Shown piece by piece: positions 4,266 through 16,404 of a stretch of DNA of 16,404 nucleotides (positions within the stretch are counted from its first letter, which is position 1; the number at the start of each line of letters is the position of its first letter). The DNA is taken from contig JABWBV010000082.1 in NCBI GenBank assembly GCA_013359445.1, positions 1-16,404 on the forward strand, given 5' to 3'. Position numbers and translations under genes: made by a program. Source of the DNA: Anaerolineales bacterium (GTDB lineage: Bacteria; Chloroflexota; Anaerolineae; Anaerolineales; JABWBV01). The notes beneath the pieces were generated by a model. It worked only from the letters and a program-made list of their open reading frames with translations, was not told the origin of the DNA and made no database searches.

Positions 4266-6872
4266 TCACTCACATCCGTAAAAAGTTCCCGCCACACCAT
4301 TCCAACAGACGTAATTGTTCCAGCGCCCGGAATTCCCGCCCAGCGCGTCTTTGATGGCCAGGGCCGCTCCATAGCCCCCGTTTTCCCACACGGTATCGTC
4401 CACCAACTCAAAGAGTTCGGCGTGAGAGGGCCGGTTCCCCGGACTGGTGTGGTAATCCCACCACATCCGCATCCAGTCCAACTCGTAGCCATAGTAATCA
4501 CAGACAAAGATCAGGCCGCCGGGATATTGCAGATGGCAGTATGGTTGATCATCGCCGATTTCCGCGTGATAGACGGTGTTGCTCCCGTCCCAGTAAACGA
4601 TGATCCCGTCCGGGTTCAGTTCGCTGACATCGTCGTGCGGATGATAGTTCCAGATATCCACCGCCACAAAGTGCCCCCACCCCTCCATCGAGGCACACGA
4701 ACCATATTCGACACCTTTCATCCCGTGCCCGGAACCATTGTAGGAGCAGTCGTTTTTATAATCAGCTACGGAAGCCAACAAACGGTGCCCGTATTCGTGC
4801 GCCAGGATGAATTTGCGCCGATATTGCCCGGAACTCATAAAGATTCCGGGTTGCCCGTACATATTCGTGGCACAGGATCCTTTGTCGGGATCATCCCCAC
4901 ATCCGGCTTTTTTCAGGTAATACGTGACGCCGTTCACGCCGCCGTTGAACCGTTCCTGGGCGGAATACGCCAGCATTCCCATCGAGTCGAAGTTCCACAT
5001 TTCCGGGCGGTAGATGTAATTGGGAAAAACGTTGTCAATCCACACAGCATAGTTCACGAGGTCCGAGGCGTCATTTGCCGCGGACGAAAGGTGACGCACG
5101 GTGATGTAGCCCCCCCCACTTTCAAGGCGCGCTTCGCCTTTCCAGGACGCATACACCCCAGCATTGGAAGTAGTGTTCACATAGGTACATCCATATCGGT
5201 TCAAATACCCATCGAATATTTTCACGCCGCTCTGCCAGAGGGACATTTTCGCACCGCGCGCCCGCCAACCGCTGTCTGAGGTACCGTAATCCTCGCCGAA
5301 GCCGTTATCGGTGGGGGCCACATACCACTCCAAACAGAAGGTGAAGGTGAACGTTGGCACGTCGGTTTCGGGCAATTGCACGAGGTTCAGACTCCCATCG
5401 CCGAGGCCCGCGCCGGGGGTGGGGAAGTCATCGCTGGTGCCAGGGTCCTCGGACTCTTCGATAATCACCGGGTCGCCGACTTCGTACATCACAAGGTCCG
5501 CCAACAGGGTGGGGTCTTCGCCAGAGGGGATAATTGCCTGGAGCATGGGGCCGATGGCGGCGTTGTGATCGAACTGGAGCGCGCTCGTCTGCCGGGCCAG
5601 ACCGAGTTCGTTGTACACCACAAGCTTGCCTTCAGGGTCGGTTTCTTCGGGGTGGAAGGCGAGGAAGGGGATTTCTATTTTGTAGAATTGTCCCGTTGCC
5701 AAATCCGTGACCATCACTTCGCCCATCACGCGGGCGGCTTCCCGGACTTTTTGCACGGCGGGGAGAAGTAACCCAATGAGAATCGGATCGGTTACGACTT
5801 CCCCGGCGAGGACGGTCATGGGTTCGCCTCGGTGTTCGGTTTGTTCGCCGCCGGAAAAGATCGTGAGCAGGTACTCGACTTGTTTATCGCTGTCGCTGTT
5901 ATTTGCAAAGGAAAGCAGAAGATTGTCGATATCGACCACCACACTGCTGTCATCGGTGGGGAGTTGCGGCCAGCCGAATTGCACTTCGGTGGGGATGCTT
6001 TCGTCCACGTGGGTGTCGTCATCGTCGGGGGGGGGAGGGGTTCCGCCACCGCCGCCCGCGACGAGGGGGAGAAAAACGGCGTGTTGTTCGTTCCAGCGAT
6101 AATCTTCGGTCTCGCCAAAGGTGTATCCTACCGCGGGGCCGGTGCCACTGTCGGAGGTAGCGGTTTGTTCGGCGACGGATAGCCGCATCCACAGGGGTTG
6201 ATCGGGATCGGGATTCCAGACGGTGAATACCGGGCTGACGAAGGAATACGTCCCCGGCCCTGGCAGGGTGAGGGACATGTTCTGCATCGCCCACTCCGAG
6301 ACGACCGCGGCAGTCCCCGGACAGGTTCCGGCGACCCCGCCCCAAGCCCCGCTCCGGTTCCAGTCCGCCCAAAGGTTGGCGTAGGCGACGACGCTGGTCG
6401 GGAAGGTGGCCGGAACGGTGACGGTAAAGCGCACGATCATTTCCTGGCAATGGGGCAGTTGGCGGGGGAGTTCCAGGCCGTTGTCTGCGCCGTCGTTGTT
6501 GGCGGCAAGGCCAAGGGTGCCCGTGATGATGAGGTTATTGCCGTCGGGGTCGGTGTCGATGCCGACGTCGGGCAATTCTTCGCCGCTGACGCCCGTGCCG
6601 AGGTAAAACGCGAGGGTGGTGTTATCGTGCCAGGGACCGTTGGCATCGAGGGTGGTGGGAAATTGCCCGGGGACCCCCGCATAGGCCTCGAACGCGGCCC
6701 CCGCGGAATTCGCGCTGTCGGGCGCGTCGCCGTAGTCGTGGGTGGGTGCGCCCCCACCGGGCAGGGTGAAGGGCAGTGGGGGATGATGCACCGGCGGTGG
6801 CGCGGCCGCGGTCAGGAAGGCGAACGCGATCAGCGTCACGCCCAGCCACGGGAGAAGTTGTTTGGGTTTCAT
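4266..6872 (-). CDS. Secreted zinc metallopeptidase (HEXXH zincin) with N-terminal GEVED-like domain and Gly/Pro/Asp linker
   Basis: The start is placed at the ATG at 6872 (MKPKQLLPWLGVTLIAFAFLTAAAP signal peptide) with a GGAGGT Shine-Dalgarno 5 nt upstream; the track's longer start at 6950 has no SD. The domain begins DYGDAP and ends GETEDY, the GEVED-family signature as recalled. A GGGGGTPPPPDDDD linker follows, and the C-terminal domain carries FILAHEYGHRL (HEXXH). Confidence 0.8.
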   Translation of the reverse strand: MKPKQLLPWLGVTLIAFAFLTAAAPPPVHHPPLPFTLPGGGAPTHDYGDAPDSANSAGAAFEAYAGVPGQFPTTLDANGPWHDNTTLAFYLGTGVSGEELPDVGIDTDPDGNNLIITGTLGLAANNDGADNGLELPRQLPHCQEMIVRFTVTVPATFPTSVVAYANLWADWNRSGAWGGVAGTCPGTAAVVSEWAMQNMSLTLPGPGTYSFVSPVFTVWNPDPDQPLWMRLSVAEQTATSDSGTGPAVGYTFGETEDYRWNEQHAVFLPLVAGGGGGTPPPPDDDDTHVDESIPTEVQFGWPQLPTDDSSVVVDIDNLLLSFANNSDSDKQVEYLLTIFSGGEQTEHRGEPMTVLAGEVVTDPILIGLLLPAVQKVREAARVMGEVMVTDLATGQFYKIEIPFLAFHPEETDPEGKLVVYNELGLARQTSALQFDHNAAIGPMLQAIIPSGEDPTLLADLVMYEVGDPVIIEESEDPGTSDDFPTPGAGLGDGSLNLVQLPETDVPTFTFTFCLEWYVAPTDNGFGEDYGTSDSGWRARGAKMSLWQSGVKIFDGYLNRYGCTYVNTTSNAGVYASWKGEARLESGGGYITVRHLSSAANDASDLVNYAVWIDNVFPNYIYRPEMWNFDSMGMLAYSAQERFNGGVNGVTYYLKKAGCGDDPDKGSCATNMYGQPGIFMSSGQYRRKFILAHEYGHRLLASVADYKNDCSYNGSGHGMKGVEYGSCASMEGWGHFVAVDIWNYHPHDDVSELNPDGIIVYWDGSNTVYHAEIGDDQPYCHLQYPGGLIFVCDYYGYELDWMRMWWDYHTSPGNRPSHAELFELVDDTVWENGGYGAALAIKDALGGNSGRWNNYVCWNGVAGTFYGCE

Positions 6873-10067: not shown

Positions 10068-13000
10068 ATGCCTGCCCCGCGCCTCGCGCTCACCCTCTTC
10101 GGGCCGTTTGAAGCCCTGGTCAACGCCCAGCCCCTCGCTTTTGCCACCGATAAAATCCGTGCGCTCCTCGCCTACCTCGCCCTCGAACCGGACAAACCCC
10201 ACCGCCGCGAAACCCTCGCCGCCCTGCTCTGGCCCGATTATCCCGACGAGACCGCGCTCCGCAACCTGCGCCAATCGGTGTACCGGCTCCGCCAAACGCT
10301 GGCCGACGCCGATCCCGACCTGCCCGCCCGCCTGATCACCCAAACCCGCCCAACCATCACTCTGCACGCCGCCGCGCTGACCACGGACACCGCCCGGTTT
10401 ACCGCCCTCGTGCAGGAGAGCCAAATTGCGCCTGATCCGCGCCCCCCTTTGACCGAATTGACCGCTCTCTACCGGGGCGAACTGCTGAAAGGGTTCGCCT
10501 TGTCCGACGCCTACGCCTTCGACGAATGGTTGAGCATCCAGCGCGAAATTTTCCACCAGCAAACGCTCGACGCCTTCACTCGGCTGATGTCGCGTCAGGA
10601 AAACGACCCCGACGCCCTGCTAACCACCGCGCCGCGCCTGCTGGCCCTGGCCCCCTGGCACGAAGAAACCCACCGCCAGATCATGCGCGCCCACTTGCAA
10701 AAAGGCAACCGCACGCAAGCCCTTGCCCAATACCAGACTCTCCGCACGACCCTGCTCCGCGACCTGGGCGTAGAACCCGCCCCCGCTACCACAGCCCTGC
10801 TCGCCCGCATTCAAACCGAAGCGCCTTACCCCGAAAACGCTCAAACCGCACCCATTCCCCCCCGCCCGACCCTGCGGAACTTCCCCGCGCCGCTCACCCC
10901 CCTCATCGGACGCAAAGCCGAACTGGACGCGCTCACTCAGATGCTGTCCGACCCCGCTTGCCGTCTGGTCACGCTGATCGGGCCGGGCGGGATGGGGAAA
11001 ACGCGTCTCGCGACCGAAACCGCGCGCCGCCTGTCGGCCCAGCCTCATCGGTTCACGGATGGGTTGTACTTCGTGCCGCTCACCCAACTCGAACAGGGGG
11101 AGTTGCTCCTCGCCACGGTGGCGCAAAACCTGGGCCTTACGCTTTCCGCCACCGCCGAGCCTCGCCGAGAACTCTTCCAGTATCTGCAAAGCCACCCCTC
11201 CCTGCTTCTCCTCGACAATTTTGAGCATCTCCTGCCCGACGCCGCGCCCATGCTGAGTGAACTTCTCGCCGCCGCGCCGGAGACCACGCTGTTGGTGACC
11301 TCCCGCGACCCGCTTGCCATTCAGGGCGAGTGGCTTTATCCGCTCGAAGGGCTGTCTTATCTTCCCGACCCGCGTGAAACTGACGCCCCGCTCGAACGCC
11401 CCGCCCCGCAACTGTTCATCCAAACTGCCCGCCGATACCGCCCGTCATTCGATCCCCCGGCCCACGCGGAATCCATCCTGGCGATCTGCCGCCTGACCGA
11501 TGGCTTGCCCCTTGCCCTCGAAATGGCCGCCGCGTGGATGCGCGCGTATTCCACCCAAGAAATCGCCGAACGCATTACCCAAAGCCTAGATTTTCTCACC
11601 AACCCCTATCGGGACGCGCCCGCCCGACAACGGAGCCTGCGCGCGATTTTCACTTCGACGTGGGAACAGCTCGCGCCGGAACCCCGCGCGGTGCTCGCCG
11701 CCCTGTCGGTGTTCCGGGGCGGGTTCACCGTCGCCGCCGCGTTAAACGTCGCCCAGGCTGGGGTTCTCGATCTGGCCGTGCTGGTCGAAAAATCCTTCCT
11801 GCGCCGCGCTGAACACCGTTACGATTTGCATGAACTGGTGCGCCAGTTTGCCGCCGAAAAACTAGGGGAGATGGGCCACGCGCCGGTGATTTTTGCCCGC
11901 CATGCGAACTTTTATCTCGCCACCCTGGCCCAACAAGCCCCTGGCTTGAACGGGCCATCCCCGCAGGAGGCGTTGTCGGCAATGCGCCAGGAGTTGGACA
12001 ATGTGCGCCACGCGTGGGCCTGGGCGGTCGCGAGGGCGGAGGTGCGGTTGCTCGAAATGGGACTGGAGGGGTTGGTACAGTTTTTTATGTTGACAGGGAA
12101 CCTTGCGGAGGGGGAAAACGCGGTCAAAAAGGCCCGCGCCGCTGTGTCGGCCCTGCCCGCGGCCCCCACGCCACTTCAAAGTCAGTTAGAGAGTTCGCTG
12201 GCGTGGTTCCGCGTGGGGTTGGGGAATCATCTGGCCGCGTTAGAAAATATTCAGGCCGCGCTGTCCCTTGCGGGGCAACATCTCCCCAGCCGCGCCCGTG
12301 CCCTTTCGATTTACGGGTGGGCGTTGCAAACAACCGGGAAGTATGCCGAAGCGGAAACGGCGTTGGAAGAGGCGATTACCCTGTTTGACCAAATGGGCGA
12401 TCTGTTTCAAAAATCTTTTGCGCTGATTCGCCTGGGTGGGGTTTATTGGCGGAGGCGGGATTTTGAGAAGACGCGGATGTATTATCAACGCTCGTTGCAA
12501 ATCGAACAAACGCTGGGAAACAAGCGAGGGATGACGCGCGCGTTCGGCGGGCTGGGGTTGGTGTATTTAAATCTGGAAAAATACCCGGAGGCGCTGGAAG
12601 GGTTGGGGCGGGCGCTGGAATTGGATCGGGAATTGGGAAATCTGGCAGGGGTGTCGCGCCATTTGGGGAACATTGGCGCGGCGCACTTGATTTTGGGTCA
12701 GTTTGAGCAGGCGCGGGCGTGTTTTGAGGAGGCGGCGGAAATGGATGCCCGGGCGGGGAATAAAGTGACGCTGGGCATTTGGAAGGAGAACCTGGGGATG
12801 GTGTTTATGCATCTCCAGCAGACGGATAAGGCGCGGCAGTGTTTTGATGCGTCCATTGGGTTGTTTCGAGAGGCGGGCAATCGGTTTAACTTGCCGGAGC
12901 CGCTGTTGGGCAAGGCGGATTTGCTGTTGGCGCGGGAGGAAGATGATGAAGCAAAAACGCTGATCGAGGAGGGGGTGCGCCTTTCGGACGAACTCAACCG

Positions 13001-13274
13001 CAAGGATACGCAGACCCGTGGGCGGCTGTTGCTCGCTCGTTGGCTCGCCCGGACCGATCCTGCCACCGCCCGCCAACAGTTGGAGACGATGCTGGCCGCC
13101 CTCGGTGATTTGCCCGCCGAGGAGACCCGCGCGCAGATTTATTTCGAACTCTGGCGCACGGATGGGCGCGAGGAGGATGCGGGGCGCGCGTTGGACCTGT
13201 ATCGGCGATGTTTGGGGAGGGCGCAGAAGTTTGAGTATCGGGTGAGGGTGGAGGCGTTGGAGCGTAAAACGTAG
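10068..13274 (+). CDS. AfsR/SARP-family large transcriptional regulator: OmpR-type winged-helix DNA-binding domain + BTAD, NB-ARC/STAND P-loop NTPase, C-terminal TPR repeats
   Basis: A 1068-aa ORF. The N-terminus LTLFGPFEALVNAQPL...KIRALLAYLAL is SARP-like. The BTAD region reads YRGELLKGF...DEWL...RLLALAPWHEETHRQIMRAHLQKGNRTQALAQYQTLRTTLLRDLGVEP. Walker A is LIGPGGMGKTRLA and Walker B is LLLLDNFEHLL. TPR-like repeats run through the C-terminal 450 aa. Confidence 0.9.
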   Translation: MPAPRLALTLFGPFEALVNAQPLAFATDKIRALLAYLALEPDKPHRRETLAALLWPDYPDETALRNLRQSVYRLRQTLADADPDLPARLITQTRPTITLHAAALTTDTARFTALVQESQIAPDPRPPLTELTALYRGELLKGFALSDAYAFDEWLSIQREIFHQQTLDAFTRLMSRQENDPDALLTTAPRLLALAPWHEETHRQIMRAHLQKGNRTQALAQYQTLRTTLLRDLGVEPAPATTALLARIQTEAPYPENAQTAPIPPRPTLRNFPAPLTPLIGRKAELDALTQMLSDPACRLVTLIGPGGMGKTRLATETARRLSAQPHRFTDGLYFVPLTQLEQGELLLATVAQNLGLTLSATAEPRRELFQYLQSHPSLLLLDNFEHLLPDAAPMLSELLAAAPETTLLVTSRDPLAIQGEWLYPLEGLSYLPDPRETDAPLERPAPQLFIQTARRYRPSFDPPAHAESILAICRLTDGLPLALEMAAAWMRAYSTQEIAERITQSLDFLTNPYRDAPARQRSLRAIFTSTWEQLAPEPRAVLAALSVFRGGFTVAAALNVAQAGVLDLAVLVEKSFLRRAEHRYDLHELVRQFAAEKLGEMGHAPVIFARHANFYLATLAQQAPGLNGPSPQEALSAMRQELDNVRHAWAWAVARAEVRLLEMGLEGLVQFFMLTGNLAEGENAVKKARAAVSALPAAPTPLQSQLESSLAWFRVGLGNHLAALENIQAALSLAGQHLPSRARALSIYGWALQTTGKYAEAETALEEAITLFDQMGDLFQKSFALIRLGGVYWRRRDFEKTRMYYQRSLQIEQTLGNKRGMTRAFGGLGLVYLNLEKYPEALEGLGRALELDRELGNLAGVSRHLGNIGAAHLILGQFEQARACFEEAAEMDARAGNKVTLGIWKENLGMVFMHLQQTDKARQCFDASIGLFREAGNRFNLPEPLLGKADLLLAREEDDEAKTLIEEGVRLSDELNRKDTQTRGRLLLARWLARTDPATARQQLETMLAALGDLPAEETRAQIYFELWRTDGREEDAGRALDLYRRCLGRAQKFEYRVRVEALERKT

Positions 13275-15427: not shown

Positions 15428-15474
15428 GATGATTTCTCCTAAAAAAATGATGGATTGTTGTCGTAGCGCGGGGA

Positions 15475-15665
15475 CCTTCATCCCCCGGCGAGCTGAATCA
15501 GCACAGGAAGACCGCCAGCACCACGCGTGCCTCCCATTCCAGCCCCGCCCGGCGATAATGTCGCCAGGCTACAACACGATGCCCGTTCAAACGGGCTTTT
15601 CCAGCCGGATTCATCCGGCGTCGTTGGTAGCCGGGGGATTTATCCCCCGGCGAGCCAAATGAGCC
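15475..15665. promoter_or_regulatory. Intergenic region (globin-to-FG-GAP) with a thrice-repeated motif TCATCC(CCC)GGCG and embedded palindromes; candidate operator/promoter region
   Basis: R1 TCATCCCCCGGCGAGCTGAATCAGC (15478-15502) and R2 TTATCCCCCGGCGAGCCAAATGAGC (15640-15664) match at 21 of 25 positions. A partial third copy TTCATCCGGCG lies inside the palindrome CCGGATTCATCCGG (15606-15619). R2 overlaps the palindrome CCGGGGGAT-TT-ATCCCCCGG (15634-15653). Confidence 0.4.
15581..15600 (+). terminator. Small terminator-like hairpin with U-tract on the plus strand (GCCCG-TTCAAA-CGGGC-TTTT)
   Basis: A 5-bp GC stem followed by TTTT, oriented for a plus-strand transcript. No convincing plus-strand gene lies upstream, so its function is uncertain. 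Confidence 0.25.
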
Positions 15666-15672
15666 ATGCTTT

Positions 15673-16086
15673 TTACGCGGGCTGATACGCCGCTTCTTGC
15701 ATCAACCCGCTCAACAACGCAAACGCGTTTTCCCACGCGGATTCCACTTCGGGCGTGTACGCCGCGCCCAGGCCTTTTTCCAGCGTCCACAACAACGCCG
15801 CGCCGACGGTGGCGTAATGTTCGGGGCGCACGCCGTACCCCGCGTGGCGTTGGCCCAGGCTTTGCACGGCGGGGATGATCCGTTCGGGGTTGTCCAACCC
15901 GATCACGACCAGTTTGAGGGCGGACATCAGTTTTTCGCCCTGGGTTTTCAAATCCGCTTTGAACAACGGGCGCAGGTTGGGGTCCAGTTCAAACAGCCGT
16001 CCGTAAAACAGCGAGGCCGCGGTGTCCGCAATGGGTTCCACCTGGGCAAAAGATTGTTGGAGGGTGAGAATTTCTTGTGTGTTCAT
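15673..16086 (-). CDS. Single-domain bacterial hemoglobin (3/3 globin, Vitreoscilla Hb / flavohemoglobin N-domain-like)
   Basis: A 137-aa ORF with an AAGGAG Shine-Dalgarno 5 nt upstream of the ATG at 16086. FYGRLFELDPNLRPLF, IIPAVQSLGQRHAGYGVRPEHYATVGAALLWTL and ESAWENAF align with the VHb/Hmp globin fold, including the proximal His in the HAGYGV context. Confidence 0.85.
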   Translation of the reverse strand: MNTQEILTLQQSFAQVEPIADTAASLFYGRLFELDPNLRPLFKADLKTQGEKLMSALKLVVIGLDNPERIIPAVQSLGQRHAGYGVRPEHYATVGAALLWTLEKGLGAAYTPEVESAWENAFALLSGLMQEAAYQPA

Positions 16087-16265
16087 TTTTAGCTCCTTTT
16101 GATTTCACCGAAAGCCCTACGACGCTTTTCGTTGTAGCATCCTGAGCGGAGGCTTTGCGAAGTCGAAGGATGCGGTGTCATTCATTTCAATTTCCCCATC
16201 TTACGCCCCCACCGTCAGCGCCTCGTCGCGGGAACGTAGGCGGAAAGACAAAAAAACCTCGCTTT

Positions 16266-16404
16266 TTCAAATGGATTAGTACCCAGGTTCGTAGTGCCGC
16301 ACCCCAGTGCGGTCCGGCACTGACGTGCCTCACTACAAACTGGATATTTCAGATGGCGTTGCACCCAGGTTCGTAGTCCCGCACGCCAGTGCGGTCCGGC
16401 ACTG
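16266..16404. repeat. Two copies of an 82-bp-period tandem repeat with nested palindromes, truncated by the window end
   Basis: 16281-16322 and 16363-16404 match at 40 of 42 bp (ACCCAGGTTCGTAGT[G/C]CCGCAC[C/G]CCAGTGCGGTCCGGCACTG). Weaker similarity extends upstream (TTCA[A/G]ATGG...). Nested inverted repeats are GTGCCG...CGGCAC and CCGCAC...GTGCGG. Confidence 0.6.

Follow-up and report, generated by a model that had tools for sequence, protein, structure and literature searches.

Features at the Contig Edge

The window analyzed here is a stretch of 16,404 nt from an Anaerolineales MAG and is very probably an entire contig that stops within a repeat. Among nine proteins that it encodes, including the products of all eight large ORFs, Pfam recognizes SPFH, GH57, GEVED, PMP repeat, DinB, BTAD-NB-ARC-TPR, FG-GAP, and globin domains. 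The globin gene (15673 to 16086, minus strand; Pfam Globin, E 3e-16) carries the record name "hemin receptor." At 200 to 320 nt upstream of its start codon, and running into the contig end, lies the cluster of palindromes with which this work is concerned.

A repeat search finds a direct repeat with an 82-nt period, in which positions 16255 to 16322 align to 16337 to 16404 with 84% identity over 68 nt. Within it is a 41-nt core, CCCAGGTTCGTAGTGCCGCACCCCAGTGCGGTCCGGCACTG (16282 to 16322), whose second copy (16364 to 16404) has 2 mismatches; no match like that of the core arose in 200 dinucleotide-preserving shuffles. A tandem repeat with this period had been proposed at the window edge by a sequence-only reading, and both the repeat alignment and the shuffles confirm it. 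That reading also counted 40 matches between two 42-nt units separated by 40 nt, and a recount agrees. The would-be spacer between the units had been said to resemble the sequence that precedes the first of them, and it does so at 18 of 27 positions (a manual count on the repeat alignment). Tandem Repeats Finder misses the array because just about 1.8 units lie inside the window, the second unit being cut by the window and contig end at 16404. As the window is apparently the whole contig, the assembly holds no sequence past the truncated second pair of palindromes. Exact-protein look-ups intended to extend the sequence past 16404 led to nothing but short Logan contigs and a related strain whose arrangement is different, and the FG-GAP protein, with the start codon chosen for it, is absent from the exact-protein records.

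Two Inverted GTAG-Tagged REPs per Module

What is repeated? Each module contains two REPs in opposite orientation. REP-A1 (16287 to 16312, plus strand) has the head GTTC-GTAG-TG, followed by the hairpin CCGCAC/CCCA/GTGCGG, and matches the REP regular expression at 16291 to 16310. After a gap of three bases, TCC (16313 to 16315), comes REP-B1 (16316 to 16340, minus strand), which has the head GTTT-GTAG-TGA and the hairpin GGCAC/GTCA/GTGCC and matches at 16317 to 16336. REP-B1 is inverted relative to REP-A1, so the GTAG tags are outermost in the pair. A 28-nt linker (TGGATATTTCAGATGGCGTTGCACCCAG; 16341 to 16368, plus strand), whose sequence varies between loci, then separates two GTAG heads. It is followed by REP-A2 (16369 to 16394, plus strand), a second copy of REP-A with two substitutions (GTAGTC in the head and GCCA in the loop), and by the first 7 nt of REP-B2 (GGCACTG; 16398 to 16404, minus strand), which is cut by the contig end. 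On the left, the segment at 16255 to 16286 (plus strand; AACCTCGCTTTTTCAAATGGATTAGTACCCAG) is linker-like, with about 67% identity to 16337 to 16368 inside the 68-nt repeat; judged by its sequence, it is the diverged linker portion of the first module.

The basic REP is thus about 26 nt long and can be written GTTYGTAGTG-NN-GCAC-N4-GTGC-NN, to which both REP-A and REP-B conform; as a search pattern it reads GTTYGTAGTGNNGCACN(3-5)GTGCNN. This length, together with the stem-loop pairing, places the unit among the imperfect palindromes of 20 to 40 bp that are called REPs. Two inverted REPs with hairpins 3 nt apart make a pair of 54 nt, and the pair plus the 28-nt linker makes the 82-nt module, of which at least 1.8 copies precede the contig end. 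The resulting order in the window is + - + (-), the gaps measure 3, 28, and 3 nt, and the period is 82 nt; this is the alternating and regularly spaced arrangement of REPs by which BIMEs are defined. All units carry the GTAG tag. The search patterns did require GTAG, though the surrounding bases that they did not require are kept as well and give the consensus head GTTYGTAGTG. The inverted partner, REP-B, carries the tag too, even though it was absent from the pattern used for collection. A covariance model of the pair matches 16285 to 16342 with 77 bits (E 1e-24) and REP-A2 partially, at 16375 to 16403, with 18 bits. By this model the 16.4-kb contig has one site only, and the same model recovers family members in other loci. 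The sequence-only reading was right that the element is structured and palindromic; it missed the inner anatomy of two inverted, GTAG-tagged REPs per unit and, with it, the identification as a cluster of REP/BIME type.

Folding

The predicted fold of the pair is a single long interrupted hairpin, GTAGTG..GCAC..CAGTGC/GCACTG..GTGC..CACTAC. In an alternative fold, a hand-drawn model that was checked against 11 aligned pairs, two small hairpins are closed by an outer stem formed by GTTCGTAGTG and CACTACAAAC. According to these models, the REP pair can adopt either the long interrupted hairpin or a Y shape. The 59-nt unit is predicted to fold better than its shuffles on both strands (z = -3.3 for plus and -4.9 for minus), the best fold being that of the minus strand, which is the globin-sense strand, at -35 kcal/mol. 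Stems GTGCCG...CGGCAC and CCGCAC...GTGCGG had been described at the outset as nested. The stems themselves are found, but since both use the bases CCG they are not nested and must be taken as alternatives, or as hairpins standing side by side.

Across the 11 aligned pairs, standard base pairs occupy 88.8% of cells, compared with 22 to 43% when the partners are slid by 1 to 3 columns. Hairpin 1 pairs in all 11 aligned dimers, and hairpin 2 pairs in 83% of cells. Hairpin 2, which belongs to REP-B, shows compensatory changes, with pair 37-50 occurring as GC in 6 cases, AU in 3, and CG in 1. Hairpin 1 is uninformative on covariation because its sequence was fixed by the search pattern. Overall, covariation is weak: 3 pairs are changed on both sides, against a mean of 2.5 in shuffles. 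Rfam gives no match at gathering thresholds and four matches at E up to 10, all of them far under threshold. Apparent G-U wobble had been weighed as an argument for a minus-strand RNA and was dropped, as the C/T alternation in the heads is a mere difference between the two REP variants. A hammerhead-type ribozyme with a three-way junction was likewise rejected; on inspection its core motifs are missing, and it has no Rfam match.

Family Members in Other Genomes

The sequence-only reading had advised checking whether the repeat is a dispersed REP or MITE, and pattern scans indeed find the element dispersed, with several MAGs and metagenomes carrying it at loci that are unrelated to one another. 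A metagenome scan with the pattern TTCGTAGTNCCGCACNNNNGTGCGG gave exact matches at 10 loci. Five of these loci are on separate contigs of WBZL01, the assembly of a related strain, which has 6 strict matches on those 5 contigs. Among genomes, a first scan with the stricter pattern GGTTCGTAGTNCCGCACNNNNGTGCGG gave 0 matches because its leading GG was too strict, and a relaxed pattern gave 20 loci. About half of these 20 are chance matches in coding regions of unrelated bacteria (Mycoplana, Streptomyces, Lentzea, Desulfovibrio, and others) and were left out. The relaxed scan also matched one MAG each of Anaerolineales, Chloroflexus sp., and Chloroflexota, and the MAG VFZK01, which is labeled Acidimicrobiia, has 9 strict matches on 8 contigs. 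In the 250 kb of DNA fetched around such loci, a looser REP regular expression matches 56 times, against 2.25 matches expected from shuffles. With chance and duplicate loci removed, 39 REP units remain in 18 loci, and all of them have the form [GTT/GCT][C/T]GTAGTG..GCAC N3-4 GTGC.

The element takes several forms, occurring as single pairs, as single palindromes, and as tandem modules of 76 to 82 nt at unrelated, mostly intergenic sites. Neighboring units are arranged head-head in 8 cases, tail-tail in 5, and head-tail in 5, and the gap between the REPs of a pair ranges from 2 to 12 nt across loci. Isolated pairs occur at four loci (L001, L011, L016, and L024), and in that of L011 both halves are the same REP (GTAGTTCCGCAC N4 GTGCGG). 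Single REPs with one GTAG head occur at six (L014, L022, L029, L032, L033, and L038). Two loci carry arrays: L013 has 2.4 copies of an 80-nt module, and L015 has 2.3 copies of a 76-nt module in the order - + - + -, each with 95% identity between copies. The linkers on the GTAG side in L013, L015, and L025 are 23 to 30 nt long and of different sequence, and are near-identical within one array. A variant arrangement is seen in the Chloroflexus sp. MAG (L026, 3825 to 3983), where three REPs follow each other head to tail with a 54-nt period at the 3' end of a gene. These have the form GTAG[C/T][A/G]CCGCACGGC[C/T]GTGC[G/A]G, with the REP-A stem CCGCAC/GTGCGG, and stand in one orientation only.

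Where do the elements sit relative to genes? In 17 of the 18 loci they are intergenic, lying between long ORFs, which is the mainly extragenic location expected of REPs. Some are very close to coding sequence. The L013 array ends 4 nt past the upstream gene's stop codon, the pair at L024 begins 3 nt past that of a 3-methyladenine glycosylase gene, and the L015 array has a terminator-like hairpin on one side and, on the other, the Shine-Dalgarno sequence of the gene that comes next. The flanking genes are unrelated in function (tag glycosylase, solute-binding protein, FG-GAP/ASPIC, cytochrome c, and aldehyde dehydrogenase, among others), and the elements point either way with respect to the closest gene. 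The one exception to the intergenic rule is L011 (4560 to 4617), where a pair stands in frame within an ORF for an MrfA/Hrq1-like DEAD-box helicase, and because of this copy the family is not strictly extragenic. The pair falls at approximately residues 418 to 437 of the protein, between the winged-helix and HNH domains. Large genes for STAND-type regulators (BTAD-NB-ARC/NACHT-TPR) occur in the window (10068 to 13274) and beside REP pairs in L001 (2446 to 5664) and L016 (3727 to 5740); their recurrence there is probably a coincidence in genomes rich in such genes.

The Globin Region and Its Counterpart in a Related Strain

In the related strain (L001), the region upstream of the globin gene carries one REP pair and a strongly diverged second module, and a divergent BTAD-NACHT-TPR gene has its start codon next to the pair. 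Such a difference between strains fits a fast-evolving REP hotspot. At about 5775 to 5835 of L001, a hairpin with a 16-bp stem (GGTGGGGTGGACGTGC ... GCACGTCCACCCCACC) and a loop of about 35 nt replaces the first REP module of the window; it may be a decayed palindromic element or a different one.

The globin leader of the window has a further peculiarity, an 82-nt insertion (16108 to 16189) that lies between a conserved upstream block and the Shine-Dalgarno sequence and is missing in L001. The insertion has a flanking direct repeat, ATTTCA, a palindrome, CTACGACG-CTTTT-CGTTGTAG, and a hairpin, GCATCCT...AGGATGC. No further copy was found in the fetched loci, and to judge by its appearance it is a small, separate mobile insertion.

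On the other side of the globin gene, the 245-nt spacer from the globin stop codon to the start of the FG-GAP gene holds a second type of GTAG palindrome, GTAG-CCGGGGGAT-TT-ATCCCCCGG-CGAGC. Its two copies (15463 to 15489 and 15627 to 15650, plus strand) are 162 nt apart, and between them is a third GTAG hairpin (15548 to 15572, minus strand). At the same place, L001 has three copies of the second-palindrome module (6454 to 6831). The genome of the window probably hosts more than one REP family.

These repeats coincide with the points at which assemblies stop. Two Logan contigs of the same strain, L004 and L005, are identical to the window and end at approximately 15618, inside the cluster of second-type palindromes, and approximately 16168, inside the 82-nt insert. 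With the MAG contig ending in the REP cluster at 16404, assemblies break at all three repeat regions.

What Kind of Element Is It?

Taken together, the observations make it very likely that this MAG from Anaerolineales (Chloroflexota) carries a BIME-like cluster of REPs with GTAG tags. The feature does resemble the opening of a CRISPR array truncated where the contig stops, with two near-identical 42-nt repeats standing 40 nt apart and an AT-richer stretch before them. Closer inspection takes this resemblance apart. The supposed spacer is 67% identical to the flank before the first repeat, and the conserved unit is really about 54 nt long with a 28-nt linker. The related arrays at L013 and L015 have just 2.3 to 2.4 units, with the linkers included in the 95% identity, and isolated single copies are dispersed. 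The Pfam scan found no cas-related domain in any of the nine window proteins, nor was one among the matches listed for the flanks of related loci. Related spacers, short arrays, dispersed single copies, and the absence of a Cas domain from the nine proteins therefore exclude a CRISPR array for practical purposes. The sequence-only reading had itself preferred a tandem structured element over CRISPR, and its preference holds up on the related spacers, the dispersal, and the nine proteins. An integron attC site was also considered and rejected on inspection, the ends GTT...AAC being the inverse of the attC order RYYYAAC...GTTRRRY, with no cassettes or integrase.

Dispersal by itself would suit a DDE-type MITE, with GTTCGTAGTG and CACTACAAAC as terminal inverted repeats and a later tandem duplication. 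The 54-nt pair does have 10-nt inverted ends, and its isolated copies do occur at unrelated sites. Yet inspection of the flanks shows no target-site duplication at any isolated copy, and half-elements, which are unexpected for an element that depends on its terminal inverted repeats, are common; on these two grounds a MITE is very unlikely. The elements, at 46 to 56 nt, are also shorter than usual MITEs, and a GTAG tag plus a hairpin is the anatomy of a REP. Might the cluster instead be a structured RNA peculiar to this locus, such as a cis-regulatory or small-RNA element of the globin leader that was duplicated in tandem? It does lie upstream of globin, the globin-sense strand is the one that folds best, and at L015 and L001 a pair is 10 to 30 nt from a start codon or Shine-Dalgarno sequence. 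But copies of the element adjoin genes with no common function and stand either way round with respect to the closest one, and no Rfam family can be assigned to it even at E up to 10, so that a globin-specific RNA has to be considered highly improbable.

How a GTAG-Tagged REP Cluster Might Arise

How might a cluster of GTAG-tagged REPs have come about? From what has been reported on REPs (PMC2817692 and PMC3733652), the units would be non-autonomous mobile DNA, their single-stranded hairpin and GTAG tag being recognized by a RAYT-type HUH/Y1 enzyme whose gene would lie elsewhere in the genome. The 82-nt module may then have been amplified locally, whether by the same type of enzyme, by slippage, or by unequal recombination. 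The REP cores in the window are 95% identical and the linkers about 67%, from which it follows that the duplication is old or that the cores have been homogenized. The arrays at L013 and L015 look recent. In E. coli, REPs stabilize or attenuate transcripts, and the transcribed hairpins described here may act likewise, as stabilizers of mRNA 3' ends or as attenuators. A specific role of the cluster in globin regulation is unlikely.

A transposase was sought with an HMM built locally from the 24 RAYT/TIRYT sequences of Additional file 5 of PMC3733652. Six-frame searches with this HMM, phmmer, and motif regular expressions found no RAYT or other Y1/HUH transposase in the window or the 40 fetched loci (about 250 kb). 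A single weak phmmer match to RAYT (E 0.007) fell on the C-terminal tail of a non-transposase protein and was rejected. Mobilization by such an enzyme is therefore inferred from the known biology of REPs, with the fetched DNA having yielded no RAYT. A quite different account would be that of a REPIN-like family which has propagated without a canonical RAYT through Chloroflexota and perhaps Acidimicrobiia, its pairs perhaps having been co-opted repeatedly near ribosome binding sites and stop codons as RNA modules. Spread independent of RAYTs might then proceed through a different HUH enzyme or host recombination. This account keeps an outside chance, given that the searches found no transposase and that start or stop codons are only 3 to 30 nt away from several copies.

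The reading as a cluster of GTAG-tagged REPs has several consequences. (i) It removes a false CRISPR lead, the repeat being an ordinary genomic one. (ii) It explains why the MAG contig and the short-read contigs of the same strain break in this region. (iii) It adds an Anaerolineales family to a class of repeats for which most studies concern Proteobacteria, and if a cognate transposase is found, the family could aid the study of REP-RAYT systems in Chloroflexota. (iv) Because the cluster upstream of globin differs between two closely related strains, it is a possible marker for strain typing.

Comparison with Known REP Systems

The element is of a well-known kind, and GTAG REPs have already been reported in Chloroflexi. 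The GTAG super-family was described by Di Nocera, De Gregorio, and Rocco in 2013 (PMC3733652). As described there, GTAG REPs are stem-loops with an unpaired GTAG at one end and occur in Proteobacteria, Cyanobacteria, Chloroflexi (Chloroflexus aggregans and Thermomicrobium roseum), and the PVC group. They form head-head, tail-tail, and head-tail dimers with partners 1 to 5 bp or 20 to 100 bp apart. Most lie downstream of ORFs, with occasional intragenic copies, many of these in DNA repair genes. The family described here is alike in its short GC-rich stem-loop (the stem is 5 to 6 bp here and mostly 6 to 9 bp, down to 5, in the published cases) and in its unpaired GTAG tag. It is alike as well in occurring as singletons, as all three types of dimer, and as dimers reiterated in tandem with flanking DNA, and in a mostly intergenic location, often just past an upstream ORF's 3' end, with a few copies inside genes. 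The pair in the helicase gene of L011 echoes the published intragenic REPs in DNA repair genes. In the terms of that paper, the window pair is a head-head dimer, and it resembles a REPIN. Two things differ: the conserved head is longer here (GTTYGTAGTG), and the hosts, uncultured Anaerolineales and a MAG labeled Acidimicrobiia, are outside the set of species surveyed there. What is probably new, then, is an Anaerolineales family with the GTTYGTAGTG head that also occurs in an Acidimicrobiia-labeled MAG, though it may coincide with one of the numbered families GTAG-1 to GTAG-24.

BIMEs have been defined as regularly spaced REPs of alternating orientation, with modules arranged head to tail (Nunvar 2010; PMC2817692), and RAYTs, the REP-associated tyrosine transposases, have been proposed to generate them (PMC2817692). 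The window cluster shares the alternating orientation, the regular spacing, and the head-to-tail modules with the BIME-2 and atypical BIMEs of E. coli and with the BIMEs of Stenotrophomonas and Xanthomonas (PMC2817692). As in these BIMEs, two inter-REP segments alternate, here of 3 and 28 nt, and each module has two REP variants, here of the CCGCAC and A/GGCAC types, which are comparable to Y and Z2 in E. coli. The sequences, in contrast, are unrelated to those of the E. coli, Stenotrophomonas, and Xanthomonas BIMEs, and the arrays described here have 1.8 to 2.4 modules; arrays in E. coli have up to about a dozen. Classical REPs typically exceed 100 copies per genome; here, scans that required exact matches give at least 9 copies in VFZK01 and at least 6 in WBZL01. 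The REPINs of Pseudomonas fluorescens (Bertels and Rainey 2011) are reportedly dispersed units in which two inverted REPs form one hairpin, as the isolated pairs at L001, L011, L016, and L024 appear to be here. The gap between their REPs is said to be about 70 nt, compared with 2 to 12 nt in the pairs of the present family.
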